DNA of 64,000 nucleotides from Pseudomonadota bacterium. Its GTDB lineage: Bacteria; Pseudomonadota; Alphaproteobacteria; Paracaedibacterales; CAITNM01. Each line of letters begins with the position of its first letter. Positions within the stretch are counted from its first letter, which is position 1. Below the pieces are notes generated by a model. It did no database searches. It was given only the letters and a program-made list of their open reading frames with translations, and was not told the DNA's origin. The DNA lies in NCBI GenBank assembly GCA_046309815.1, contig JBKCOJ010000008.1, positions 63,856 through 127,855 of the forward strand. Direction: 5' to 3'. Positions 8,925 to 30,267 of the stretch are shown one piece after another. A program made the position numbers and the translations under genes.

Positions 8925-9765
8925 GAATATTGATACAGTTTTATTGCAATGTTTTATTGCTGTGGCAGAGACAGGGAGTTTTACAAAAGCAGCGGAGCGA
9001 GTAGGGCGGACTCAATCTGCTATTAGCCAGCAGATTAATAAGCTAGAGCTTATGCTGGGCAAGCATCTTTTGATACGAGGTAAAACTTTTGCTCTCACTA
9101 CTGAAGGAGAAATTTTTCTTAGTTATGCTAGGCAGATTTTTTCTTTGCACAGAGAAGCTATGAGCAGGTTTAAGGAGCCGGACTTGGAAGGAGAAGTAAG
9201 TTTTGGTCTCCCTGAAAATTTTGCAAGTGTGTATCTTTCAGAAGTTTTAGCTGATTTCTCACGTTTTCAACCTCGTATTCTACTTAATATTGAGTGTGAT
9301 TTGACGCTTAATCTTTTTGATAAGTTTAAAAGCAAAGAGCTGGATATTGTTTTGGTGAAAATGAATAGGCCTGAAGATTTTCCAAATGGTGTATATGTGT
9401 GGTCAGAGCCTTTGAGATGGGTTGGAGATTCCAGCTTAATATCTGAGGATAAACCTATTCCTTTGGTTTTATCTCCAAATCCTTGCGTTTATAGAGCATC
9501 AGCTATAAAAGCTTTGGAAGAAGCTGGTAGATCATGGCGTTTGGTTTTTTCTAGTACAAGTTATACGAGCACAGTTGCTTCTGTTAAAGCAGGAATGGGA
9601 ATTACTGTGATGCCATATACTATGATTCCTAGTGGATTACAGACAGCAGAAGCAACTGTGCTTCCAAATCTGCCCGATACTCACGTTTCATTGCTTAAGC
9701 ATAAAGCAGATAATCCTGCTATTAACACACTAGAAGAATTTGTGTTGAAAAAATTAAAACATTAA
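8923..9765 (+). CDS. LysR-family transcriptional regulator, divergent from the dab operon
   Basis: 280 aa. N-terminal HTH FTKAAERVGRTQSAISQQINKLE followed by a LysR substrate-binding domain. Confidence 0.9.
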   Translation: MNIDTVLLQCFIAVAETGSFTKAAERVGRTQSAISQQINKLELMLGKHLLIRGKTFALTTEGEIFLSYARQIFSLHREAMSRFKEPDLEGEVSFGLPENFASVYLSEVLADFSRFQPRILLNIECDLTLNLFDKFKSKELDIVLVKMNRPEDFPNGVYVWSEPLRWVGDSSLISEDKPIPLVLSPNPCVYRASAIKALEEAGRSWRLVFSSTSYTSTVASVKAGMGITVMPYTMIPSGLQTAEATVLPNLPDTHVSLLKHKADNPAINTLEEFVLKKLKH

Positions 9766-14299: not shown

Positions 14300-15146
14300 G
14301 TTTAGAGGGTCGATCGTTGCTTTAGTGACTCCATTTAAAAACAATAGCCTGGATGAGGAGGCACTTGTCAATCTGATTCATTGGCAGGGTGCATCGGGAA
14401 CGAATGCGATTGTTGTTTGTGGGTCGACAGGAGAAGGCGCATTACTTCATGTACAGGAACGCGAACGGCTTATTCAAATTGCTGTTAAAGAATCTGCGAT
14501 TCCGGTTGTTGTGGGGTGTGGGGCGCCTTCTACATGGGCTGTTGTTGAGCAGGCCAAGCAAGCAAAACAATTAGGAGCGACTGGTTTATTAGTGGTAGCG
14601 CCTTATTACTGTAAAACGACGCAAGATGGCATGTATCAGCATTTTAAGGCAGTGCATGACGCGGTGGATTTACCAATACTGTTATATAATAATCCAGGGC
14701 GCACGGTGCAGGAAATTTCTGTAGAGACGGTACTGAAGTTGTTTGAGCTTGAGCGTGTGGTAGGCATTAAAGACTCTACCACTGACACTAGTAGAGCGGC
14801 CTTGATGCGTGCGTCGGCTAAAAAACAAGTATGCTTATTAAGTGGCGATGATCCATATGCAGCGGGATATTTGGGGCAAGGGGGCGACGGGATTATTTCT
14901 ATCACGGCAAACATATTGCCTGAGAAGATGGCAGCGTTTGCCTATGCTTGGCTAGATAAGGATCATAAAAAATTTCATGCTTTAAATAATGAGCTAATGC
15001 CTATTCATTATGCGATGTTTGCTGAGCCTAATCCAATTCCTGTTAAGGCGGCGATGGAGATGTTGGGCAAATGTTCGAGTGAGGTGCGAATGCCGTTGCT
15101 GCGAGCTTCAGCTGAGACGGTGGCGAAGCTGAAGAAGCTTTTGTAA
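14298..15146 (+). CDS. dapA: 4-hydroxy-tetrahydrodipicolinate synthase
   Basis: MFRGSIVALVTPF parallels the E. coli DapA N-terminus. GSTGEG motif and the Schiff-base Lys context GIKDST. An alternative ATG is at 14286. Confidence 0.9.
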   Translation: MFRGSIVALVTPFKNNSLDEEALVNLIHWQGASGTNAIVVCGSTGEGALLHVQERERLIQIAVKESAIPVVVGCGAPSTWAVVEQAKQAKQLGATGLLVVAPYYCKTTQDGMYQHFKAVHDAVDLPILLYNNPGRTVQEISVETVLKLFELERVVGIKDSTTDTSRAALMRASAKKQVCLLSGDDPYAAGYLGQGGDGIISITANILPEKMAAFAYAWLDKDHKKFHALNNELMPIHYAMFAEPNPIPVKAAMEMLGKCSSEVRMPLLRASAETVAKLKKLL

Positions 15147-15209
15147 AAACGCGGTAGTAAAATTTATAAAAACGCGGTAATATAGTTTGTAAAAACGCGG
15201 ACTTTATTT
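15141..15209 (+). repeat. Three tandem 23-bp direct repeats with core TT(G/A)TAAAAACGCGG
   Basis: Units are 15141-15163 ttgtaaaaacgcggtagtaaaat, 15164-15186 ttataaaaacgcggtaatatagt and 15187-15209 ttgtaaaaacgcggactttattt. The first unit overlaps the dapA stop. The last ends 9 nt before the ATG of the ATPase gene. Confidence 0.85.
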
Positions 15210-15217
15210 TTGTGAAA

Positions 15218-16459
15218 ATGTCGAAAAAAGCAAATTCTTTTTATGCACGGATCCAGAAAGATAGTATTGACTTAGCGCTGCAATCAAGCCGGGTTATTCA
15301 TTTGTCTGGCCCTCGTCAATGTGGAAAAGCAACATTAGCAAGAATGATAGCGTCAGAAGAAAGTGACTATCGCACTTTAGATGATGAGATGTACTTACAA
15401 TCAGCGCGAATTGATCCTGGTAGTTTTGTCAAACATGATAAAAAGCACTTAATCATTGATGAAATTCAGCGAGCCCCTCAGCTTTTAATGGCTATCAAAA
15501 AAGTTGTCGATATGGATAATAGGCCTGGCCAGTATATTTTAACGGGATCATCTAATATTCAATCATTACCAGGTGTGACGGAGTCCTTAGCGGGGCGCAT
15601 TTATAAAATTCGTCTTAGAACGTTAACAGAAGGGGAAATATTAGGGTCTGCTTCATCATTTCTAACAAGAGCATTTTCTCAAATGTTTAAGGAAAAAGGT
15701 TTTTTAGATCGGGATTCAATATTAGAAATTGGGTTTCGTGGCGGATTTCCCGAAGCTGTGCGTTTGCCCCGCAAGACTCGGTTTATATGGCATAAAGAAT
15801 ATATCCATGCTCTTTTAGAAAGAGATTTAAAGGACATTGTTAAAATTCAGCGTTTTCAAGCTATGCATGATTTAATCAGGATTATGGCAAGTTGGTCATC
15901 AAAATTTATGGATTTTTCCGCAATAGGAACAAGTTTAGGGATATCTCGCCCTACTCTTGAAGCGTACGTGAATGCACTAGAAGCGATGTATATCATTGAG
16001 CGAGTTAAGCCTTGGATTCGTACAGATTATGATCGAGTAGGAAAGCATAGTAAGATTTTTATGACTGATTCTGGGTTGATGTCATCATTGCTTGGGTGGG
16101 GGATGGATCAGGTGCGGTTTGATTCTGATCGCTGCGGTAAATTAGTGGAAACGTTAGTTTTTCATAATTTATCTGCGCTTATTGATGCCAGCTTTGGGAA
16201 GTATTCGCTGTACCATTACCGAGATCGTGAGAAACGAGAAATTGATTTTCTTGTTGAGCGCGAAGACGGATCAATGGTTGGAATAGAAGTTAAATCAAGT
16301 TCGTCAGTTGGCAAGAATGATTTTAAGAATTTGGCATGGTTTAGAAAAAATATGGCTAGAGAGAATTCATTTACAGGATTGGTGATGTATACAGGAGAGG
16401 AATCACTTCCATTTGGTGATGGTCTTTGGGCTGTGCCAATTAGTGATTTGTGGAAATAA
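15218..16459 (+). CDS. AAA+ ATPase of the AAA_14/DUF4143 type with a PD-(D/E)xK-like C-terminal module
   Basis: Walker A GPRQCGKAT and Walker B LIIDEIQRAP. A wHTH-like segment ISRPTLEAYVNALEAMYII. The C-terminal REIDFLVEREDGSMVGIEVKSS fits a D...ExK nuclease-fold motif. Start is ATG 15218 or GTG 15212. Confidence 0.8.
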   Translation: MSKKANSFYARIQKDSIDLALQSSRVIHLSGPRQCGKATLARMIASEESDYRTLDDEMYLQSARIDPGSFVKHDKKHLIIDEIQRAPQLLMAIKKVVDMDNRPGQYILTGSSNIQSLPGVTESLAGRIYKIRLRTLTEGEILGSASSFLTRAFSQMFKEKGFLDRDSILEIGFRGGFPEAVRLPRKTRFIWHKEYIHALLERDLKDIVKIQRFQAMHDLIRIMASWSSKFMDFSAIGTSLGISRPTLEAYVNALEAMYIIERVKPWIRTDYDRVGKHSKIFMTDSGLMSSLLGWGMDQVRFDSDRCGKLVETLVFHNLSALIDASFGKYSLYHYRDREKREIDFLVEREDGSMVGIEVKSSSSVGKNDFKNLAWFRKNMARENSFTGLVMYTGEESLPFGDGLWAVPISDLWK

Positions 16460-20952: not shown

Positions 20953-21243
20953 TTATTGTTTTGTGCTTAATTTTCTAGCAATAACTTTTTTCAACGGTAG
21001 AATTTCAGCTGTTAGCTTACGCTTTGGAGTCGATGTTAAGTACGCATCTAAGCCGCCATGAAATTCAATAGTGCGAATTGCACGAGTTGAAAGACGAAGG
21101 CTTACAGTTCTGCCAAGCGCTTCACTTAGGAAAGATACATTTTGCAAGTTAGGTAAAAAACGACGATTTGTCTTATTATTTGCGTGGCTCACATTATGAC
21201 CAAACAACACACCTTTTCCTGTTAATGCACAACGACGCGCCAT
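20953..21243 (-). CDS. rpmB: 50S ribosomal protein L28
   Basis: MARRCALTGKGVLFGHNVSHANNKTNRRFLPNLQ is the canonical bL28 N-terminus. Confidence 0.95.
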   Translation of the reverse strand: MARRCALTGKGVLFGHNVSHANNKTNRRFLPNLQNVSFLSEALGRTVSLRLSTRAIRTIEFHGGLDAYLTSTPKRKLTAEILPLKKVIARKLSTKQ

Positions 21244-21320
21244 ATCATTTTTCCTTGAATAATTTTCGTTAATTTATAGCATATTTTACCGAAGCGTCAA
21301 GGGTAAACTTGGCTAAAAAA

Positions 21321-22334
21321 TTAAAAGCCTACCCCTTTTGTAGTGGAATATTCAAAGTGCGTGATTTCATCGGGGTAGAGGTGCGTGCGAATAGCGTGTG
21401 CTGCTTGGGCAGCTTCGGCAAAACCCGTTAGAATGAGCTTAAGCTTGTGAGGGTAGGTGGCAATATCGCCAATGGCATAAATGCCTTTGCGGTTTGTGGA
21501 AGAAGTGGCTTGATCAACAGCAATGTGATGTTTTTCAAGGTTTAATCCCCATTCAGCGATAGGTCCTAAATTCATGGACAGGCCAAAGAATGGGAGAAGA
21601 TAATCGGCTTGGAGAGATCGTTTTTGTCCATCAAGGCTTTCCACATCAACGTGGCTTAAAATGCCGTTAGTGCCTTGTAGCCCGCTAAGCTGATAAGGGG
21701 TAACAAGTTCGAGCTCGCCTTTTGAAGCTGCAATATTAAGTTTTTCTTCACTATCGGGGGCGGCACGGAATTTTGCTCGACGATGCACAACCTTAACAGA
21801 TGCGGCAATGTCTTTTAAAATGAGCGCCCAATCAACGGCTGAGTCTCCGCCGCCTGCGATGACGATGTGTTTGTCTTTATAAGTATCCTTATTGCGTACG
21901 GCATAGTGAATGCTGTTTTTTTCGTACATGTCTAAATGATCAAGAGGGGGACGATTGGGGCCAAAAGCACCAACGCCAGCAGCAATAATAATGCTTTTGG
22001 TTTTAATTTCGGTGCCTGTTGAGGTCTGCACAAGCCATTCGGTGCCATCATTATTTAAAGGGGTAAGCTGTGTTACTTGTTGATTTAAGTGGTATGTTGG
22101 GAAAAAAGGAGCGGCTTGCTTTTCAAGCTGATCGATAAGATCTGCTGCGGTAATGGATGGGTAGGCGGCAATATCGTAGATGGGTTTTTCTGGATACAAT
22201 GCTGAACATTGCCCCCCCACCTTTTCAAAGGCATCGACAACGTGCGCCTTAAGTTTTGCCATTCCGCATTCGAAAATGGCAAATAAGCCAACCGGTCCGG
22301 CGCCAACGATGACAACGTCGGTTTCGTACTGCAT
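21321..22334 (-). CDS. Ferredoxin-NADP+ reductase, thioredoxin-reductase-like type
   Basis: 337 aa. FAD site VVIVGAGPVGL and NADPH site IAGGGDSAVDWA. No CxxC redox pair, as in TrxR-type FNRs. Confidence 0.85.
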   Translation of the reverse strand: MQYETDVVIVGAGPVGLFAIFECGMAKLKAHVVDAFEKVGGQCSALYPEKPIYDIAAYPSITAADLIDQLEKQAAPFFPTYHLNQQVTQLTPLNNDGTEWLVQTSTGTEIKTKSIIIAAGVGAFGPNRPPLDHLDMYEKNSIHYAVRNKDTYKDKHIVIAGGGDSAVDWALILKDIAASVKVVHRRAKFRAAPDSEEKLNIAASKGELELVTPYQLSGLQGTNGILSHVDVESLDGQKRSLQADYLLPFFGLSMNLGPIAEWGLNLEKHHIAVDQATSSTNRKGIYAIGDIATYPHKLKLILTGFAEAAQAAHAIRTHLYPDEITHFEYSTTKGVGF

Positions 22335-22345
22335 GGCTTCTGAGC

Positions 22346-22471
22346 TTAACCTTGACGTGCTTTGTAACGTGGTTTCTTTTTGTTGATAACGTACAAGCGA
22401 CCCTTACGGCGTACTAACTTGCAGTCTTTATCACGATTTTTAAGAGTTTTTAAAGAATTTGCGATTTTCAT
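22346..22471 (-). CDS. rpmJ: 50S ribosomal protein L36
   Basis: Not in the ORF track (41 aa). Hand translation: [41 protein letters not shown] followed by a stop. AGGTGA RBS 5 nt upstream. Confidence 0.9.
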
Positions 22472-22497
22472 AAATTTCACCTACATGCTTGGCGTTG

Positions 22498-22526
22498 ATA
22501 TTAAGTGGTTCTTTTGAAATTGTCAA
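22498..22526 (-). promoter_or_regulatory. Sigma70-type promoter of rpmJ
   Basis: Minus strand: TTGACA (22526-22521), 17-nt spacer, TAATAT (22503-22498). It lies about 27 nt upstream of the rpmJ ATG. Confidence 0.55.
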
Positions 22527-22536
22527 AAAGAAAATT
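22513..22536 (+). repeat. 24-bp direct repeat, copy 1 (TTTGAAATTGTCAAAAAGAAAATT)
   Basis: Exact match to 25758..25781. Contains the -35 box of the rpmJ promoter. Confidence 0.95.
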
Positions 22537-22591
22537 TTGGGTGCCTCCCTGGGCTCGGGGCTCCGACGTAGGTGACTTTCAGAAAGTCTGT

Positions 22592-22981
22592 TTAGCTATA
22601 AATGATAGCAGATGATAAAGGGTTTGAAAGTGCAAGATCAGATTTGAGTGATGCTGATATGGATTCGGTAGTTGTAATGGGCATGAAAAGAGGTTCTTCT
22701 TTTTGGAGTGCGGGTGGGTATTTTAAAAGATAGTTTTGAATAAGAAGCTCTGTGACAAGACGTGCTTGATCTTCAATTTTTCGGTAGTAGTCGTCATAGC
22801 TTTCTTCTCGTAAGGGTGAATTCTTACCAAGGCTTCCTTGCATAAAATGCAAGTAGCTGATGCGGTGGTAGATGAAATTCCATATTTTTACATTATCTAT
22901 GATTTCTTCATGCACTTCTTCACTATTTGAACTGAATAACGATAGGAGGAGTATCTGGATAACGCCGTTGCAGTTGCTCAA
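22592..22981 (-). CDS. Hypothetical protein, third gene of the orphan cassette
   Basis: 129-aa ORF with no recognised family. A GTG at 22915, 7 nt after the protease stop, would give 107 aa and remove the 59-nt overlap. The start is uncertain. Confidence 0.4.
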   Translation of the reverse strand: MSNCNGVIQILLLSLFSSNSEEVHEEIIDNVKIWNFIYHRISYLHFMQGSLGKNSPLREESYDDYYRKIEDQARLVTELLIQNYLLKYPPALQKEEPLFMPITTTESISASLKSDLALSNPLSSAIIYS

Positions 22982-24236
22982 TGCCTTGCAGGGTCATGTC
23001 TTGACTGATTGGTTCAATGAATACAGAAGGTAATGGTGCTTCCATGCCTGCATGATTGGTGAAATTATCTTTTAACGAAATTGCCTTGAATTCCTCGAGA
23101 GTGTCTTTTCCTTTTCCACTGAAGGCAAAAAAAGCTTCCGAGAAGATGTCAGAGATTTTTATTGAATGCTCCTTGCACGCTGTTTGCATTTGTAGTCGCA
23201 GTTCATCGATAAAGGCTTCTTGCCAGGGCTGATCACCGTCTGTTTGTACACTAAATAACACAGGCCGCCATCTATCTAAGGGCGGGTTTTGATAATCAAC
23301 ATTTAATTGCTGCCATAAATCGATTTTTGAAAAAAGAGAATAGCGATTTAATAAAAAATGATAGTCTAGTCTTGCGGCACAGCTTTGTGCTGGCTTCTCT
23401 GCCTTACTTTTGCTTTCTTGCGCGGATAAAGAAAAACGAAAAAGAGGTGCTGCTTCACGTTGGCTTTTTTTCCGGTCACCATCTCCATAACCATGAATGC
23501 CAAAAATTATCCAGGTGTCATCTATGTGTTGATATAGGGAAGATCCGCTCATGGATGCATAGGTTTCTAAGTTGCCTTCAATTTTATTGTTACCAGTAAA
23601 CTTTACAGTTCCCATTACTTGGTGACGTGTTCTCATCACACGATCAACCGAGGTTTGCTCGGTGGTTTGCTCGATTACATAGCCAATCAGTTCAATATCC
23701 GCATCATCAGATTGGTCTGGTGGTACAGTAATTTTATAGGAAAAAACGTGAGGAAAATCATCTTCATTATATAAGATGGCAATATCATATCCCTTGTACA
23801 AAAAACGAGTATCAAATTGTTGAGGAATGGCATGCCTCTCAAAAATAAATCTATGGCCTTGTGCATCATAAAAGTGGACTTCAAAAGCAGTATCTTCATA
23901 GTCTTTTAAAAATTCCTCTTTTTCTGCTTTGGCAGCAGCAGAATCTCCAGGAGAAATTTTAAATTTAACAGAATGAGCAGTGGTGATGACAAGATTTCGA
24001 TGCACCATAATACCTGAGCTAAAAGTTGCTCCTGGCCGTGTGCCTTCTATTTTTGCGAGATGATAGGAAATGATTGAGCCTTGTGGTTCATTGGGACGCG
24101 TTGTAAACAGTGAGGAAACTCTATTCCAAAAACTCTCATCAAATTTTAAATAGTCTTGCTCATGATGGCTTGCAAAAGCTGAAATACAAGACAACATGAA
24201 ACTTAAGCAATGAAAAAATCTGAAAAGAGCAATCAT
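22923..24236 (-). CDS. Secreted trypsin-fold (chymotrypsin/V8-like) serine protease with an uncharacterised ~170-aa C-terminal domain
   Basis: Signal peptide MIALFRFFHCLSFMLSCISAFA. Catalytic-triad contexts in the right order: LVITTAHSV (His), YDIAILY (Asp) and SMSGSSLY (Ser, cf. GNSGSP). ATGA overlap with the upstream gene. Confidence 0.7.
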   Translation of the reverse strand: MIALFRFFHCLSFMLSCISAFASHHEQDYLKFDESFWNRVSSLFTTRPNEPQGSIISYHLAKIEGTRPGATFSSGIMVHRNLVITTAHSVKFKISPGDSAAAKAEKEEFLKDYEDTAFEVHFYDAQGHRFIFERHAIPQQFDTRFLYKGYDIAILYNEDDFPHVFSYKITVPPDQSDDADIELIGYVIEQTTEQTSVDRVMRTRHQVMGTVKFTGNNKIEGNLETYASMSGSSLYQHIDDTWIIFGIHGYGDGDRKKSQREAAPLFRFSLSAQESKSKAEKPAQSCAARLDYHFLLNRYSLFSKIDLWQQLNVDYQNPPLDRWRPVLFSVQTDGDQPWQEAFIDELRLQMQTACKEHSIKISDIFSEAFFAFSGKGKDTLEEFKAISLKDNFTNHAGMEAPLPSVFIEPISQDMTLQGIEQLQRRYPDTPPIVIQFK

Positions 24237-25684
24237 TTAGAATCCTTTTCTTCAGGTGGACCGACTCTAGCGAAAAGGATATGGCCATAAGAATCTCTTA
24301 CGATATCTGTAATCACCGCATTTTTATAAAAATCATCAGCTCGTGCGTTTCGTTCCGCTGCTCTTTTTAAGGCTTCTTCTTGTCTCTGTTGTTTTCTGAT
24401 TTGAACTTGATGATGTGAGTAAAGCTTAACTAAACGATTGCTATTTTGCCGAGAAGATATACTTTCTTTAACTTTTCTTATGAATTCATCGTTTTCTAGC
24501 GCAAAGAACTCTTCTTGGTTTGCAACCCCTAAGATACGGAAGAGTTCATCCATTGGGGTGTCGTCTTCTCTTGGTGGGCCTGCTAAAGAAGTTGCTGGAA
24601 AGGCTATTTCTTGAGCATTCGTGATGCCTATTAAAGGGGTGGATGAAGGTAATTCTTCAGTTGGTAGGTCTAGACTTTTGCTTATCTGTTTTTGCTCTTC
24701 ACTAGCAGCGACCTGGTGGCAGGTGGTTAAGAAGGCGATCATGGCCATGAGGTAAGGTTTTTTCGTGCAAAAAAGCTGGCGTACAGCTGCGATGGAAGGT
24801 GCATTTGGGTTGATGTGTTGCTCTGAGATTAGCAAAACCTTTTGTAGGATATTGATCATATGGGTGTAGGCCTTTGCGAAAAGAAGGTTATCTACACCAG
24901 TGTAGGTAACTTCTCTTACTTGCTCAATTGAGGCTAAACCTGTCATTTGTGGTAAGTCAGATTCGCTTTGCGTGCTTACAACGCCCAGCATTTCATCAAG
25001 TTGAACATGTGTGTGGCTTGTAAATACTTTTATAGCTTCATTTAGAAGGGGGTTTGATGGCTGCATGTACAATAATTGTTTGCGGAGATAGGTATCATCA
25101 AGCAGTAAAAAAATACCCAGATCTTTTTCTTCTACGTATCTACGAATGTCTTTTGAAGGATGTTGAGAAATACTTACAAAAAGGGTCTGATCTTGAATAG
25201 CGATACCAAGAGCTTTTGAAGAAGAAACAGTGGGGATACTATAAACAGTACCATGTTTAAGATGGAGCGTTGTACCGCCTTCAGAGAAAAGACATCGAGG
25301 TAAATCTAATAAATCAGGACTATCGGATGATGTGTTGCGAAATAAAGGGGTGGAGATGCCTAAATACTTAGCATTTCTTGGTATGATGAGAAAATACGAG
25401 AGTGCGTTAAAGGAAATGCTTGTGAGAGGTGTTGTATTAAAGACAGAAGGTTTATCAGATGCACTTTCTTCTTGTTCTTTGTGGTCTTGAGTGGTTTGCG
25501 GTATTTCTAGAGTACTGATTTCTTCTGATGAAGGATCAAAAACGGAGTAAAAAACAACTGATCGAGGAGAGGGAGGAGGGACGCTTCTTTTTTTGATATC
25601 TTCTGTATCCATGGCCTTAATAAGAGGAAAGAGCAGCCAGCTTATCAACAGAAAGCGTAAGAAAGGTTCGTAAATATTAACCAT
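24233..25684 (-). CDS. Hypothetical secreted/membrane-anchored protein, first gene of the orphan cassette
   Basis: 483-aa ORF. Hydrophobic N-terminus FLRFLLISWLLFPLIKA, an S/P/E-rich linker and a charged coiled-coil-like C-terminus (QIRKQQRQEEALKRAAERNARADD). No family recognised. Confidence 0.55.
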   Translation of the reverse strand: MVNIYEPFLRFLLISWLLFPLIKAMDTEDIKKRSVPPPSPRSVVFYSVFDPSSEEISTLEIPQTTQDHKEQEESASDKPSVFNTTPLTSISFNALSYFLIIPRNAKYLGISTPLFRNTSSDSPDLLDLPRCLFSEGGTTLHLKHGTVYSIPTVSSSKALGIAIQDQTLFVSISQHPSKDIRRYVEEKDLGIFLLLDDTYLRKQLLYMQPSNPLLNEAIKVFTSHTHVQLDEMLGVVSTQSESDLPQMTGLASIEQVREVTYTGVDNLLFAKAYTHMINILQKVLLISEQHINPNAPSIAAVRQLFCTKKPYLMAMIAFLTTCHQVAASEEQKQISKSLDLPTEELPSSTPLIGITNAQEIAFPATSLAGPPREDDTPMDELFRILGVANQEEFFALENDEFIRKVKESISSRQNSNRLVKLYSHHQVQIRKQQRQEEALKRAAERNARADDFYKNAVITDIVRDSYGHILFARVGPPEEKDSK

Positions 25685-25757
25685 GATTGCGTAAACAATT
25701 ATGAATCTTCATCATCATAATATAAATATTTCAAAATTCAATTACAAAATTGCTTTA

Positions 25758-25781
25758 TTTGAAATTGTCAAAAAGAAAATT
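25758..25781 (+). repeat. 24-bp direct repeat, copy 2 (TTTGAAATTGTCAAAAAGAAAATT)
   Basis: Exact match to 22513..22536. Lies between the porin terminator hairpin and the 483-aa gene. Confidence 0.95.
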
Positions 25782-25805
25782 CCCTCTAACAAATTTGCTA
25801 GAGGG
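25771..25805 (-). terminator. Rho-independent terminator of the porin gene
   Basis: On the minus strand, CCCTCTA-gcaaatttgt-TAGAGGG is followed by AATTTTCTTTTT. The U-tract is part of the 24-bp repeat. Confidence 0.7.
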
Positions 25806-25826
25806 AAGTGATAGGTTAGGAAGTTT

Positions 25827-27377
25827 TTAGAATTTGTAAGATGCGCCAAACTGTAAGCGTTGTCCTAGGCCTTTGTATTTTAACGTTGATTGACGTTGCA
25901 GCACAAAATATTCTAAACCAAGCTCTAGGTTATCTTCTGGTCTGTATATTGTGTTGATAAGGAATTTGTTGAATTTCTTATCAATGCCTGGTTCAAACCA
26001 TTGCTTGATTGGGCGATTAATATCATTAGACTTGGCTTGCGTGTTTAGCCGGATTTGTGCAACACCGATGCTTGTCTGCCATTGTGGAGTCCAAACATGT
26101 GAGTACCCAGCCCAGAACATGTTCATGCCAATGGCTCTGTATCGTTGTCCTTCGGTGGACGCTGCTGGATCGAAGAGAGCTGATCTACCATTCATCTCAA
26201 GGATATACCAACCAATACCTTTACCTGTGCTGACCCCACCGGTGAAGAAACTGCCACCCGTTGTCATAATTTTTGCCGCGACGTTGGCGCCCCATGCATC
26301 GGCTTTGTATGTTCTTCCATCAACTGTTGTTGCTGCTGTGTTGCCTCCAACTACAGCATTATTTTTAATGCGTAGATCACGATTTACAACGCTGACACCA
26401 ACTGCGCTGCCGCTATCAAAGTTATATTTCACGCGCATGATTAAATCTGGACGTGTTTGCTTTGAAAGATTTCCTGTAGAATCCTGTGTGTTATATGTAT
26501 ATTGAGCAGTGGTAGCATTAGTTGGAGTTTTTGCATAGGATACATAATCACCGCGACTATTTTCTGCAGCTGCTGTTATAGAGAAATTACCTAATTTATG
26601 TGTGTATCTAATTAAAGCGTGTCGACCGTAGCCACCGGAAATTCCATTTAAATCCACCGATGGTAGAATGGCTTCATCGAGATGGAAGGTCGTGTTTGTG
26701 TGTCCAGCTTCTAGACCGCCATAGCTGAGTACGGCGTGGCGTAACCGGAAGGTATACGTAGTGGAAGAGTTAGTTGTGTTTCCGGTTGTTCCGCCGGGAA
26801 CAACGTCTCCCCAATGCGTAGAACCGAAGAAGTCACCTTCTATAAAGCCTTTAACGTCGGTGCCAGATGTATTTTTTACAACAGTATCCAAACGTATTTT
26901 TGTTTGTTTAGCGTGCACCATGAAATGTTCTTTCCAAGAATTCTTTATAGAAGGAGTGCTTGGATTGCGCATCTGTAATGCATAAGGAAGTCGACCTACG
27001 CTTGTTTGTTCACTGGTGTTAGCTTTTGTATCCCGAATCATGTCAAGTTTGACCATTCCGCCAACTTTTACGGCAGCTTTTGTTCCAGGAACGCGCATAT
27101 AGCCTTTATCAAAAACTAGTCCATCATCAGCTTGCTCTTGCACAACTGGCATGCCAGGCGTTGCTTTGCGAGCTTTTGCATGTTTGCTTTCCGTTTTGAT
27201 CTCTTTAACTTCAGAGCCTTGTTCTTTTACTTGCTTGGCAAGAACTTCTAGTTGTTTTTGCAATGCTTCAATTTGCTTTTGAAGGGCAGCTACTTGATTT
27301 GCAGAAGTACTTTCAGCTGCAGCTAAAGGAGCTAAAGATATACCTGCCATTAGCAGGAGAATTGTTGACTTGCTCAT
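25827..27377 (-). CDS. Outer-membrane porin with an N-terminal coiled coil (DcaP-like architecture)
   Basis: Signal peptide MSKSTILLLMAGISLAPLAAA, then the coiled coil VAALQKQIEALQKQLEVLAKQVKEQ, then a long beta-barrel region ending FGASYKF. Confidence 0.75.
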   Translation of the reverse strand: MSKSTILLLMAGISLAPLAAAESTSANQVAALQKQIEALQKQLEVLAKQVKEQGSEVKEIKTESKHAKARKATPGMPVVQEQADDGLVFDKGYMRVPGTKAAVKVGGMVKLDMIRDTKANTSEQTSVGRLPYALQMRNPSTPSIKNSWKEHFMVHAKQTKIRLDTVVKNTSGTDVKGFIEGDFFGSTHWGDVVPGGTTGNTTNSSTTYTFRLRHAVLSYGGLEAGHTNTTFHLDEAILPSVDLNGISGGYGRHALIRYTHKLGNFSITAAAENSRGDYVSYAKTPTNATTAQYTYNTQDSTGNLSKQTRPDLIMRVKYNFDSGSAVGVSVVNRDLRIKNNAVVGGNTAATTVDGRTYKADAWGANVAAKIMTTGGSFFTGGVSTGKGIGWYILEMNGRSALFDPAASTEGQRYRAIGMNMFWAGYSHVWTPQWQTSIGVAQIRLNTQAKSNDINRPIKQWFEPGIDKKFNKFLINTIYRPEDNLELGLEYFVLQRQSTLKYKGLGQRLQFGASYKF

Positions 27378-27613
27378 ATTTTTCCTAATGATAACTACTA
27401 TAATAATTCTTCAAGTGAATGATAAAAATGTAAATGTATTTAGTTAAATTTTTAAATAATGAATAAATTTGTGGCGAATTTTCCTAATTGATCTTTTATT
27501 TAAAGTTTGTCAAAATTTGCCAACTTAGATTTTTGAAATTTAAGAAATTCCATATTTTACATCGCTTGTACTTTTAGATTATCCTTTTTAGATCAGGGGT
27601 TATCTATCGTTTT

Positions 27614-28159
27614 ATGAAAAAAACGCGCAAGCATTTGCCAGATGAAGGCACAAATCGTCGAGATTTTTTAAAGTTGACCGCGACCTCATTTGGGGCTGTG
27701 GGGGTGTGTGCAGCAGCTTGGCCTTTTATAAGCAGTATGAATCCAGCAGCAGATGTGATGGCGGTGGCGAGTATTGAAGTTGATGTTTCTAAATTAGAGC
27801 CAGGACAAAGTATCACTAATCTTTGGCGGGGAAAACCCGTATTTATCAAAAGACGAACTGCTGAAGAAATTAAGGAAGCCCAAGCTGTTGAGTTGCTGTC
27901 GTTGCCGGATCCTCAAACAGATCAAGAGCGATTTGGGAAAAATCCCGAATGGCTGGTGGTAATTGGTATTTGTACGCATTTGGGATGTGTGCCGACTGAG
28001 CGTAAAAATGTGACTGCTTCAGAAGAAGGGTGGCTGTGTGCGTGCCATGGATCACGTTATGATGTGTCAGGTCGTATTATCTCAGGACCAGCTCCTAGGA
28101 ATTTGGATATTCCTCCTTATGAGTTGTTAAACAATAATACCATTATTAAAATTGGGTGA
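27614..28159 (+). CDS. petA: Ubiquinol-cytochrome c reductase, Rieske iron-sulfur subunit
   Basis: Tat-like NRRDFLKL. Rieske boxes CTHLGC and CACHGS. Confidence 0.95.
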
Positions 28160-28163
28160 GCGC

Positions 28164-29420
28164 ATGAAAATATTGGAATGGATCGATTATCGCTTGCCAA
28201 TTGTAACGCTGTTTCGCAAAGAACTGAAAGAATATCCCACGCCTAAGAACTTAAATTATTTGTGGAATTTCGGATCGCTCGCGGGTATTTCACTTGTAAT
28301 CATGATGCTAAGTGGAATTTTTTTGGCAATGCATTATGTGCCGCATGTGGATTATGCGTTTGATAGCGTGGAGCGCATTATGCGTGAAGTTAATTTTGGG
28401 TGGTTGATTCGCTATGTCCATATGAATGGGGCTTCAATGTTTTTTATTGTCGTTTATCTGCATATGTTGCGTGGACTTTATTATGGATCGTATAAAAAAC
28501 CCCGAGAATTGCTGTGGATTTTGGGAGTAGTGATTCTGCTTCTTATGATGGCAACGGCGTTTATGGGGTATGTGTTGCCGTGGGGACAGATGAGCTTTTG
28601 GGGTGCGACTGTTATTACAAATTTATTTTCAGCGTTTCCAGGAGGGGAAAGTGTTGTGCAATGGTTATGGGGCGGATTTTCGGTGGGGAATCCAACACTT
28701 AATCGGTTTTTTGCGTTGCATTATTTGTTCCCTTTTTTGATTGTAGGGGTTGTGATGCTGCATATGACGAGCTTGCATCGGTTTGGTTCGAATAATCCGA
28801 CGGGGGTCGAAGCTAAGGCAAACGATAAGATTCCTTTTCACCCCTATTACACGATTAAAGATTTATTTGGTCTCGGGGTGTATTTGTGCATATACGCATT
28901 TATAGTGTTCTTTATGCCAAATTTTTTTGGAGAGCCAGATAATTACATACAGGCAAATCCTTTGGTAACCCCACCGCACATTGTGCCGGAGTGGTATTTT
29001 TTGCCTTTTTATGCAATTTTGCGATCGATCCCCAGTAAACTTGGGGGTGTGTTGGCGATGTTTGGGGCAGTATTTACGCTAATGATTTTACCGTGGCTTG
29101 ATCGCCATCCGGTGCGTAGTGGGCGGTATCGACCGATTTTTTCAAAACTGTTTTGGGTGATGGTTTTAAATATGGGGGTGCTTGGCTGGATTGGTGCTAA
29201 GCCACCTGAAGGAATGTATCTATGGATTGGAAGGGCAGCAACAGCGTATTATTTTGTGCATTTTTGGGTTTTTTATCCATTGCTCGATAAGTTTGAAAAG
29301 GCGAGAGAGAGCCACCAAAAGGAGTCTGTTTGTGGATTGGAAAAGCTGCTACGCCTTGCTGTTTTATGCATTTTTGGGTGTGCTACCGCGTTTTTAATGC
29401 GGTTGAAAAGGAAAAAGTAG
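28164..29420 (+). CDS. petB: Cytochrome b
   Basis: [20 protein letters not shown] and [13 protein letters not shown] motifs. The ATG at 28164 is preferred over the TTG at 28152, which overlaps the petA stop. Confidence 0.95.
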
Positions 29421-29424
29421 CGTT

Positions 29425-30267
29425 ATGAATTTAGTAATTAGAAATAATAACACTGGATCCCACGTCGGCTGCGCCTCCTGGGATGATAAGATTCCTAATC
29501 ATCGCTCCAGAAAGCGAAGCTTTTGTGTAGTCCAGTTGTATATCATCATTTTACTGGCTGTTGCTACTCTCCATGCTGAACCTGCTGCTGTTCCTCCTAA
29601 GCAGGATTGGAGTTTTGCTTCACCGATTGGGACGTTTGACAGGGCTGCTTTGCAGCGCGGATTTCAAGTATATAAACAAGTTTGTTCCGCGTGTCATAGT
29701 ATTAAGTATATTTCTTTCAGGCATTTGAAGGCGCTGGGATTAAGCGATGCTGAAATTAAGGTATTGGCATCCCAGTATCAAATTAAGGATGGGCCGAATG
29801 ATGAGGGGGAGATGTTTGAAAGACCTGGTAGGCCATCTGATTATTTTCCGCTTGCCTATGCCAATGAAAAGCAAGCACGAGCGGCTAATAATGGTGCGTT
29901 TCCGCCAGATTTATCACTAATTGTGAAGGCGCGTCCTGGTGGTGCGGATTATGTGTATGCGCTTTTGACAGGATTTACGGAGAATCCTGATTTTAAGGTG
30001 GGGACTGGGCAATATTATAATGCGTATTTTTCAGGACATGCCATTTCAATGGCGCCACCTTTAAGTGAAGGGTTGATTAGTTATGGGGATGGCACGAAAG
30101 CTACAGTTGAGCAGATGGCACATGACGTAACGACCTTTTTAGCGTGGGCGAGTGAGCCTGAGGCGGAAGAACGAAAGCGTCTAGGGCTGAAGGTGCTGAT
30201 GTATTTGTTGATGATGACGGGATTGTTCTGGGCGACGATGCGGCGCATTTGGAAAAATGTAAGGTGA
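29425..30267 (+). CDS. petC: Cytochrome c1
   Basis: Heme motif CSACHS and a C-terminal TM anchor (VLMYLLMMTGLFWATM). It has an unusually long N-terminal leader (about 50 aa before AEPAAVPPKQDW), so the true start is uncertain. Confidence 0.85.
   Translation: MNLVIRNNNTGSHVGCASWDDKIPNHRSRKRSFCVVQLYIIILLAVATLHAEPAAVPPKQDWSFASPIGTFDRAALQRGFQVYKQVCSACHSIKYISFRHLKALGLSDAEIKVLASQYQIKDGPNDEGEMFERPGRPSDYFPLAYANEKQARAANNGAFPPDLSLIVKARPGGADYVYALLTGFTENPDFKVGTGQYYNAYFSGHAISMAPPLSEGLISYGDGTKATVEQMAHDVTTFLAWASEPEAEERKRLGLKVLMYLLMMTGLFWATMRRIWKNVR

Follow-up and report, generated by a model that had tools for sequence, protein, structure and literature searches.

What brought a 3.2-kb module of genes to lie between a porin gene and rpmJ, bracketed by two identical 24-nt sequences, and why both copies survive, were the questions raised by the 64-kb stretch of DNA analyzed here (the window). 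The genome is that of a protist-symbiont-like alphaproteobacterium from an uncultured, Holosporales-like lineage that is probably protist associated. The 24-mer TTTGAAATTGTCAAAAAGAAAATT occurs at 22513-22536 and 25758-25781, in the same orientation and 3,245 bp apart, as the original prediction stated. No further match was present in the window even when three or fewer mismatches were allowed, and none of 100 dinucleotide shuffles gave a match at that threshold (chance expectation, 0). Allowing 88% identity lengthens the repeat to 34 nt (22503-22536 and 25748-25781), and the 24-mer pair is the longest dispersed repeat of the window. It combines the porin terminator's U-tract with the rpmJ −35 box, TTGACA. 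The signals and genes at the two junctions are as follows.

25827..27377, minus strand: porin gene, 516 aa (Pfam Porin_2, E 2.5e-9), flanking the insertion site on its upstream side
25780..25807, minus strand: intrinsic terminator hairpin of the porin gene, with a 12-bp stem and a 4-nt loop
25758..25781, minus strand: upper 24-mer copy, source of the terminator U-tract, with a redundant TTGACA at 25771-25766
25698..25746, minus strand: candidate promoter region of the module (consensus matches only)
22513..22536, minus strand: lower 24-mer copy, source of the rpmJ −35 box TTGACA (22526-22521), with a redundant T-tract
22503-22498 and 22482-22477, minus strand: rpmJ −10 box TAATAT and Shine-Dalgarno sequence AGGTGA
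22346..22471, minus strand: rpmJ, with ATG at 22471 and stop at 22346, matching type B L36

The interpretation of the 24-mer as a terminator-promoter junction agreed with a strong hairpin and the best promoter at the expected places. The porin hairpin folds at −19.3 kcal/mol (z −4.15) and takes its U-tract from the upper copy, and TTGACA-17-TAATAT (22526..22498), upstream of AGGTGA and the rpmJ start codon, scored highest among the sigma-70-like sites of the region (10/12 consensus matches). The other half of each copy appeared redundant. No hairpin precedes the lower T-tract, and the upper TTGACA has no −10 box at 16 to 18 nt, the sole candidate being TGTAAT at 19 nt (25746-25741). A separate promoter-like pair, TTTATA-17-CATAAT (25726..25698), lies nearer the first gene of the module, so the proposal that the upper copy drives the inserted genes is unproven. 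The working terminator would lie at the upper copy and the working promoter at the lower.

Because the sequence is AT-rich and holds a consensus −35 box, it could in principle be a coincidence or a generic promoter or UP-type module recurring upstream of many genes. That explanation retains next to no probability given the shuffles and the two copies in the window. Among all 38 loci examined, the 24-mer was confined to the two junctions, by which a generic promoter module was ruled out, and the 11-mer core was not clearly enriched. A looser relative of the motif, reported earlier at 27505-27541, was not significant (TTTTTGACAAT at ≤1 mismatch, 10 sites versus 5.7 expected).

Between the copies, three orphan genes had been described. 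Their orphan status stood, in that the family is rare, and their number did not: the module is two predicted genes, one of them broken in the window, with the ORFs of 437 and 129 aa being parts of a single split gene.

24233..25684, minus strand: module gene 1, 483 aa, with an N-terminal hydrophobic segment and no known domain, from a lineage-restricted family
22592..24236, minus strand: module gene 2, ~551 aa when intact (intact form, P0008/L019)
22923-24236, minus strand: orf437, the 5′ part of split gene 2, 437 aa
22592-22981, minus strand: orf129, the 3′ part of split gene 2, 129 aa
22934..22937, minus strand: site of an 11-nt deletion that lost TGCCTTAGGCA (coding strand), a near-palindrome, and frameshifts gene 2
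22539..22576, minus strand: GC-rich filler adjoining the lower copy, present in clade A (the clade of the window) only

The window differs from L019 by the 11-nt indel and two single-nucleotide polymorphisms only. The deletion is real, since contigs of four independent metagenome runs carry the same sequence; the intact allele was found in another run. Out of 1.84 billion proteins, the family of gene 1 accounted for 17 cluster representatives, and short metatranscriptome contigs mapped to this gene. Gene 2 matched three 90%-identity clusters, the window's own included, and a profile search added one protein. A check of literature on Paracaedibacteraceae gave nothing on the porin-rpmJ module locus. 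AlphaFold2 models of both proteins were unusable (pLDDT of 40.6 for gene 1 and 29.6 for gene 2).

Gene 2 encodes a signal-peptide-like N terminus and, probably, an S1B/trypsin-like serine protease domain. The motifs ITxAH, DxAxL, and MSG (His, Asp, and Ser in order) were kept in an alignment of alleles only 23 to 24% identical and align to the triad regions of the glutamyl endopeptidase 6tya. A PDB profile search with three close gene 2 sequences gave no match; with the L032 allele added, the best, weak matches were glutamyl endopeptidases (E 0.01). As in S1B serine proteases (glutamyl endopeptidase V8 and Spl), ITTAHSV, DIAIL, and SMSGSS...GIHGYG occur in like order and context. The protein departs from these enzymes in a long C-terminal extension (~290 aa) with no known relative and in its scores, as matches of two very divergent alleles to Trypsin_2 or Trypsin fell below curated thresholds (Trypsin_2, 16.9 to 17.5 bits versus a cutoff of 27.6; Trypsin for the L032 allele, 18.0 versus 20.6). 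The two secreted-looking module proteins are candidates for host interaction, in which the module may act through a secreted protease.

Removal of one copy and the intervening DNA had been predicted to restore an empty site, and the reconstructed form was collinear with a real one in the sister-lineage metagenome-assembled genome (MAG) L002, which has, in order, porin stop, hairpin, U-tract, TTGACA, 17 nt, TAATAT, Shine-Dalgarno sequence, and rpmJ. The repeat corresponds to a pre-existing target sequence, and the duplication of the terminator/−35 junction at both ends of the insert was borne out. Porin orthologues were 83% identical in L001 and L002 and 62% identical in "Candidatus Finniella"-like MAGs. 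The module occupies the same address in clade A (L013 to L021 and L026) and clade B (L001, L022, L023, L028 to L030, and L032), and its states across relatives included intact, nonsense mutated, insertion sequence (IS) disrupted, truncated, almost erased, and absent. The porin hairpin is kept in clades A, B, and C, and the promoter-like pair near gene 1 is conserved across clades, B included.

Perfect copies of the 24-mer were present in clade A only. The upper copy of clade B is degenerate (GGGAATTTTTTTCACTAAAAAAATTCAACC), and its upper and lower copies have little in common beyond GGAATTTT-TTT. Relatives carrying the module without any repeat had been named as evidence against an insertion scar, and this was found in half measure, as clade B carries it with only a degenerate upper copy. 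The perfect 24-mer is thus specific to clade A and possibly a secondary scar. Secondary homogenization would take this further: the module would have entered with little or no duplication, or an ancestral duplicate would already have decayed, and gene conversion or repair between the two T-rich junctions would later have produced the perfect 24-mer in clade A alone and deposited the filler. Besides the restriction of perfect copies to clade A, this explanation draws on the spacer, for which both clade A copies have the derived ATTTCAAA versus ATCAAACA in clade B and ATTAAAAG in clade C, and on the GC-rich filler, whose position beside the lower copy in clade A alone hints at later rearrangement there. 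The upper copy of clade B can nevertheless be aligned as a decayed copy (CAC-TAAAAAAAT versus GACAATTAAAAGAT), and in the lower copy of clade B, remnants of both the post-stop leader and the 3′ arm of the terminator persist (p about 0.02 by local alignment), which point to an ancestral duplication of still greater length. Conversion of a 24-nt tract 3.2 kb away would itself be rare, and homogenization is considered rather unlikely, though it is the strongest of the alternatives. The filler does not fold (z 0.2), contrary to a reading of the GC-rich 39-mer as a terminator hairpin, and it was not found elsewhere in the window, in all loci, or in viral contigs.

The empty site could also be the derived state: the common ancestor of clades A, B, and C would have had the module with its repeats, and precise recombination across the two repeats would have removed it from L002. 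Clades B and C are the closest pair beside the junction and for the majority of the flanking genes (94% identity over the promoter-rpmJ stretch; concatenate distance, 0.129 for B-C versus 0.147 to 0.168), even though only B has the module. A repeat of 24 to 34 nt is also about the minimal length for RecA recombination; the minimal efficient processing segment in Escherichia coli is about 23 to 27 bp. Against this, the rooted porin tree places L002 outside A plus B, though weakly, and the module shows much less synonymous divergence between A and B than its flanks do; its alleles must then postdate the separation of A and B, and their presence in the common ancestor is not required. Such a loss is judged improbable. 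The three clades are nearly equidistant (about 80% nucleotide identity) and close to a star. The sister relations of A, B, and C in the rooted porin tree differ from those in the unrooted concatenate, so that these trees set no polarity between a gain of the module and its precise loss from L002; rooting used the porin alone, the only gene in common with outgroups L003 to L005, which lack porin-rpmJ adjacency. No excised circle was seen in the assembled contigs, and neither a clade A empty allele nor a joint of the two copies was seen in the contigs of eight DNA runs, rare variants being dropped from contigs. The organism was absent from raw-read runs X22 and X23.

Divergence within the module was examined in a block of replaced alleles.

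23900..25757, minus strand: allele replacement block (approximate lower bound), limited at its upper end by the inner edge of the upper 24-mer copy

Compared with the conspecific L013, the block was 64 to 90% identical, versus about 99.5% in the flanks (sliding identity), and synonymous divergence (dS) between window and L013 was 0.43 to 0.59 in the block versus 0.01 to 0.02 in the flanks (dN/dS about 0.3). L013 was up to 93% identical to L022 of clade B where it was only about 81% identical to the conspecific allele of the window. Between clades A and B, the proportion of synonymous differences (pS) was 0.40 to 0.52 in the module and 0.61 to 0.79 in all of the ten flanking genes but L28 (0.50 over 96 codons); this contrast is only semiquantitative, as pS values near 0.7 are saturated. 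The flanks directly beside the module were not unusually similar between A and B, which places the exchange endpoints close to the junction sequences. Mosaic alleles together with synonymous divergence lower in the module than in its flanks are evidence of homologous exchange among relatives and imply recombinational exchange at one fixed address.

The absence of an integrase or transposase, noted at the outset, was upheld for the module ORFs (Pfam and NCBIfam) and for about 8 kb on either side, where the neighbors are housekeeping genes. The only mobile-element genes seen in the variant loci were an IS200/IS605 pair inside the module of L022 and L023, which represents a separate event. Transposons and ISs likewise duplicate target sequence on both sides of inserted DNA, although their usual target site duplication is short and of fixed length (2 to 14 bp); here the duplication is 24 to 34 nt or more, there is no transposase, and no pair of terminal inverted repeats joins 22537-22600 with 25700-25757.

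The 24-mers could instead be the attL/attR core of an integrase-mediated island remnant whose recombinase was lost or acts in trans. As in such islands, direct repeats bracket the insert and equal the single copy of the empty site, and the same address is used in several lineages. Islands of this kind have integrase (tyrosine or serine recombinase) and excisionase genes and typically a tRNA or tmRNA target, whereas the insert here has neither enzyme gene, measures only 3.2 kb, comprises two genes whose composition is native, and is bordered by repeats that are degenerate in one clade. No integrase was present in any variant locus, no tRNA or tmRNA was found in the 64-kb window (ARAGORN), and family members at other loci have no end sequences in common. 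An Rfam scan of 21000-28000 gave one chance-level match only. The comparison of module and flank composition proposed earlier gave no sign of foreign origin, with module GC, GC3, and codon usage all native. An island remnant is accordingly given a slim chance.

On balance, the explanation modestly favored reads each 24-mer as one end of an insertion/deletion polymorphism, most likely produced by host recombination through insertion and exchange with duplication of the target. The 3.2-kb, two-gene module would have come to lie just behind the −35 box, leaving the junction present on both sides. Each copy would keep one indispensable half of the signal (the porin U-tract in the upper copy and the rpmJ −35 box in the lower), for which reason both survive. 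With no recombinase in the module, host machinery would carry out insertion, spread to the same address, allele swapping, and possibly precise loss. Possible routes are Campbell-type or double-crossover recombination via the short conserved junction and flanks, or illegitimate recombination at the first insertion. The repeats, the empty site, the states of occupancy and decay, the mosaic alleles, and the lower synonymous divergence of the module are observations, whereas the recombination mechanism and the part played by each copy in transcription are inferred. RecA-dependent Campbell-type integration and homology-facilitated illegitimate recombination in bacteria need no enzyme of the element, give direct repeats of a shared segment, and allow precise loss and exchange, with 24 nt being about the minimal length; in the present bacterium, presumably intracellular, they would be candidate routes.

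The insertion scar is genuine, if of a rather ordinary sort, and its locus is unusually dynamic. Like hypervariable flexible islets and plasticity loci, which carry fast-evolving secreted or surface proteins, it is an address between core genes with several very divergent alleles, some of them within one species, mosaicism, and frequent pseudogenization; it differs in that its borders are a duplicated terminator/promoter junction and its gene family is almost unknown otherwise. A compact, streamlined genome here accepts accessory genes inside a tight terminator/promoter junction without breaking the neighbors, as the overlapping signal is present twice. The range of states at one address (whole, with a frameshift or nonsense mutation, hit by an IS, truncated, or empty) marks a recombination hot spot, and alleles that cross species borders run against the common view of endosymbiont genomes as recombinationally inert. 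A bolder and improbable extension is that the duplicated junction is a recombinase-free attachment site, at which a hypervariable secreted-protein module is excised, passed between coresident endosymbiont species, and reinserted at one address without disturbing porin termination or rpmJ. If true, this would be a simple, possibly general route of gene flow in such bacteria.

The gene family also has members elsewhere, as at L038, where no flanking repeats were found, which weakens the notion that a duplication always accompanies the family. Under the same improbable extension, insertions of the family might bring duplicated local regulatory DNA in general: a distant homologue in L024 has coxB on one side and coxA on the other, and coxA is preceded by a 47-nt copy, 19 nt of it perfect, of the sequence upstream of coxB.

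The 24-mer TTTGAAATTGTCAAAAAGAAAATT occurred twice in the window, with no further match when up to three mismatches were allowed, and no match was found across 100 dinucleotide-preserving shuffles. Ungapped extension lengthened the repeat to 34 nt at 88% identity (22503-22536 and 25748-25781), and no dispersed direct repeat in the 64 kb was longer. All genes at the locus are on the minus strand, on which the 24-mer reads AATTTTCTTTTTGACAATTTCAAA. The copies bracket an accessory module between the porin gene and rpmJ, with the following features:

22513-22536, lower copy of the 24-mer, on the rpmJ side
22574-22585, part of the gene 2 3' flank that immediately precedes the GC-rich filler
about 22934-22937, 11-nt deletion in gene 2 (minus strand)
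24233-25684, minus strand, gene 1, 483 aa with a hydrophobic N-terminus
25758-25781, upper copy of the 24-mer, on the porin side

Beyond the porin stop codon is a hairpin with a 12-bp stem (-19.3 kcal/mol, z -4.15). The upper copy comes directly after this hairpin, and the first half of the copy therefore forms the predicted terminator U-tract. The lower copy holds the TTGACA of TTGACA-17-TAATAT, which was the top sigma-70-like match within 22300-27700 (10/12) and is followed downstream by AGGTGA and the start codon (ATG) of a type B L36 gene. The original prediction of a 24-bp duplication at a terminator/promoter junction was therefore correct. It had also proposed that the upper copy is now placed to drive the module, which was not supported: no -10 element was present at 16 to 18 nt after the upper TTGACA, where only TGTAAT was found, at 19 nt (TATAAT in the related locus L013), and there is a separate promoter-like pair, TTTATA-17-CATAAT, whose conservation extends into a second module-bearing lineage (clade B). 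A folding check found no hairpin ahead of the T-tract in the lower copy. The reciprocal halves (lower-copy terminator and upper-copy promoter) look nonfunctional.

The module holds two genes rather than the three first called, as orf437 and orf129 are parts of a single gene 2 that is intact (~551 aa; protein P0008) in the same-species assemblies L019, L020, and L021. Over about 3.5 kb, the only differences between the window and L019 were two SNPs and, in the window, an 11-nt deletion (TGCCTTAGGCA, near-palindromic) that frameshifts gene 2 into the two shorter ORFs. Assembly error does not account for this deletion, since contigs from four independent metagenome runs matched the window over 22300-25900 with zero differences; one further run had the 11 nt plus both L019 SNPs. 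Short metatranscriptome contigs mapped to rpmJ, gene 1, and gene 2, which is weak evidence for transcription of the module and rpmJ.

Gene 1 had no match in family-profile scans; among 1.84 billion proteins, its family numbered 17 cluster representatives. Three 90%-identity clusters, one of them the window's own, matched gene 2, and a profile search added one protein; both module genes are close to being orphans. Gene 2 encodes a signal-peptide-like N-terminus and had Trypsin_2/Trypsin matches below threshold, which recurred in a clade B allele of only 21 to 24% identity. The motifs ITxAH, DxAxL, and MSG...GIHxxG were kept in the alignment of divergent alleles, and the best matches of a profile of this alignment in PDB were glutamyl endopeptidases (E 0.01). 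Gene 2 probably encodes an S1B-type serine protease carrying an extension of ~290 aa. The 3' flank of gene 2 shares the junction AAAGTCACCTAC with locus L035, from another lineage, where a partial second copy of gene 1, starting at the invariant VTYTGVDN motif, comes after gene 2 (L035:1755-2232); the shared junction suggests a microhomology-mediated rearrangement or the remnant of a former downstream copy.

The porin placed the window among uncultured alphaproteobacterial metagenome-assembled genomes, with “Candidatus Finniella inopinata” (Holosporales, Paracaedibacteraceae) as the nearest named relative in the porin scan (62%). Published work describes characterized members of that family-level group as obligate associates of protists (PMC11909080). 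The window's sequence was contained in many freshwater metagenomes. Porin-rpmJ synteny was common to three lineages with mutual nucleotide identities of about 80%, namely, clade A (the window, L013 to L021, and L026), clade B, and clade C (L002); the more distant relatives L003 to L005 lacked this adjacency.

The clade C site is empty and reads terminator, AATTTTTTTTTTGACA, 17 nt, TAATAT, and rpmJ. It is collinear with the window after removal of one 24-mer copy and the insert, which supports the original inference that the repeats are the scar of an insertion and that an empty site can be restored. L002 could instead have lost the insert by a precise deletion, as the rooted porin tree and the unrooted concatenate group the three clades differently.

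All clade A members had the 24-mer in two perfect copies, and all had a GC-rich filler next to the lower copy; this filler, a unique 39-mer, was confined to the clade and did not fold (z 0.2). In the L013 type, gene 1 is broken by at least one in-frame stop and was called as 173 and 275 aa, although it aligns in a single frame. In clade B, the module was found at the same address with varying decay. Both genes were present in L032, with gene 2 truncated and extremely divergent. In L022 and L023, gene 1 lacked its N-terminal part, and gene 2 was disrupted both by a frameshift and by an IS200/IS605-type insertion (L022:1896-3582 and L023:1807-3493) consisting of a Y1 transposase (143 aa) and a TnpB-like ORF (380 aa). 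L030 had a different deletion, and only remnants of about 480 bp were left in L001, L028, and L029. A separate small indel polymorphism was seen in L001, where about 630 extra bases between an FNR-like gene and rpmB (L001:13290-13990), missing from the window and L002, hold a 119-aa minus-strand ORF.

The lower copy in clade B reads AATTTT[C/T]TTTTTGACAATCAAACA, and the upper copy is merely a degenerate relative, AATTTTTTTCACTAAAAAAATTCAACC. Because the perfect 24-mer and the filler occur only in clade A, the perfect repeat may be the product of a later conversion or repair event. Upstream of the clade B lower copy, an apparent decayed copy of the post-stop leader and terminator 3' arm was detected (local alignment, P of about 0.02), so that the ancestral duplication may have exceeded 34 nt.

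L013 belongs to the same species as the window, and their flanks are about 99.5% identical (dS 0.01 to 0.02). A sharply bounded block, which starts at the inner edge of the upper repeat and ends near gene 2 codon 110, is only 64 to 90% identical between the two, with dS of 0.43 to 0.59 and dN/dS of about 0.3. The block represents an allele replacement by recombination and not positive selection alone. Short patches of 81 to 92% identity to L013, some with indels, also occurred at about 29400-30250, 28800, and 16400 of the window, one of them spanning the end of the cytochrome c1 region, indicating that mosaic recombination is not limited to the module.

Between clades A and B, module pS was 0.40 to 0.52 and was exceeded by 9 of 10 flanking genes (0.61 to 0.79; the exception was L28, 0.50 over 96 codons), a contrast that is semiquantitative because flank pS is saturated. 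Parts of the L013 allele were up to 93% identical to clade B L022 versus about 81% to the window over that stretch, and the flanks adjoining the module showed no unusual A-B similarity. Together, these patterns indicate that the module alleles are younger than the species split and were exchanged at this single address, each exchange ending in the vicinity of the junction sequences.

As originally noted, the module carried no transposase or integrase, and none was found within about 8 kb. No tRNA or tmRNA was found in the 64-kb window, and no terminal inverted repeats were found at the module ends. Module GC (0.39 to 0.40), GC3 (0.31 to 0.32), and codon usage were typical of the genome. A recombinase-free insertion accompanied by duplication of the target is the reading best supported. 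Such an insertion would have duplicated the target junction, and both copies would then have been retained since each supplies one half of an overlapping signal, the porin U-tract in the upper copy and the rpmJ -35 element in the lower. Host recombination via the conserved junction and flanks could account for the fixed address, allele swapping, and possibly precise loss. The repeat's 24 perfect bases come close to the minimal processing length of RecA-type recombination in Escherichia coli.

In its behavior, the locus resembles an att-flanked islet, yet it does not pass the tests that define integrase islands and transposons. It is best classed as an accessory islet driven by recombination, with a target duplication of unusual length. 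The interest of the locus comes not from a new mechanism but from its well-resolved natural series of states, from the exchange of alleles across species in a lineage resembling endosymbionts, and from two secreted-looking proteins.

Other members of the gene family were found elsewhere. In contig L024, a distant homologue of gene 1 (P0007, 34% identity) and a 119-aa ORF lie in the interval separating coxB from coxA. Each of these two cox genes has a 47-nt stretch (83% identity) immediately upstream (L024:6461-6507 and 9337-9383). The two stretches bracket coxB and the insert, resemble a duplicated promoter or leader, and share a perfect 19-mer, GCTTTTATGTAAAGATTCA, that has no third occurrence in the contig. 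Further members were located near flhA and recO, as a homologue after recO (L037:3429-4367) and as a pair between flhA and recO (L038:2094-4572) with the overlapping two-gene layout of the module and without flanking repeats. Within the window, the short spacer ahead of an ORF starting at 15212 contains a 23-nt unit (TTTGTAAAAACGCGGTAGTAAAA-like) in three tandem copies (15140-15218), which could be an operator- or iteron-like array.
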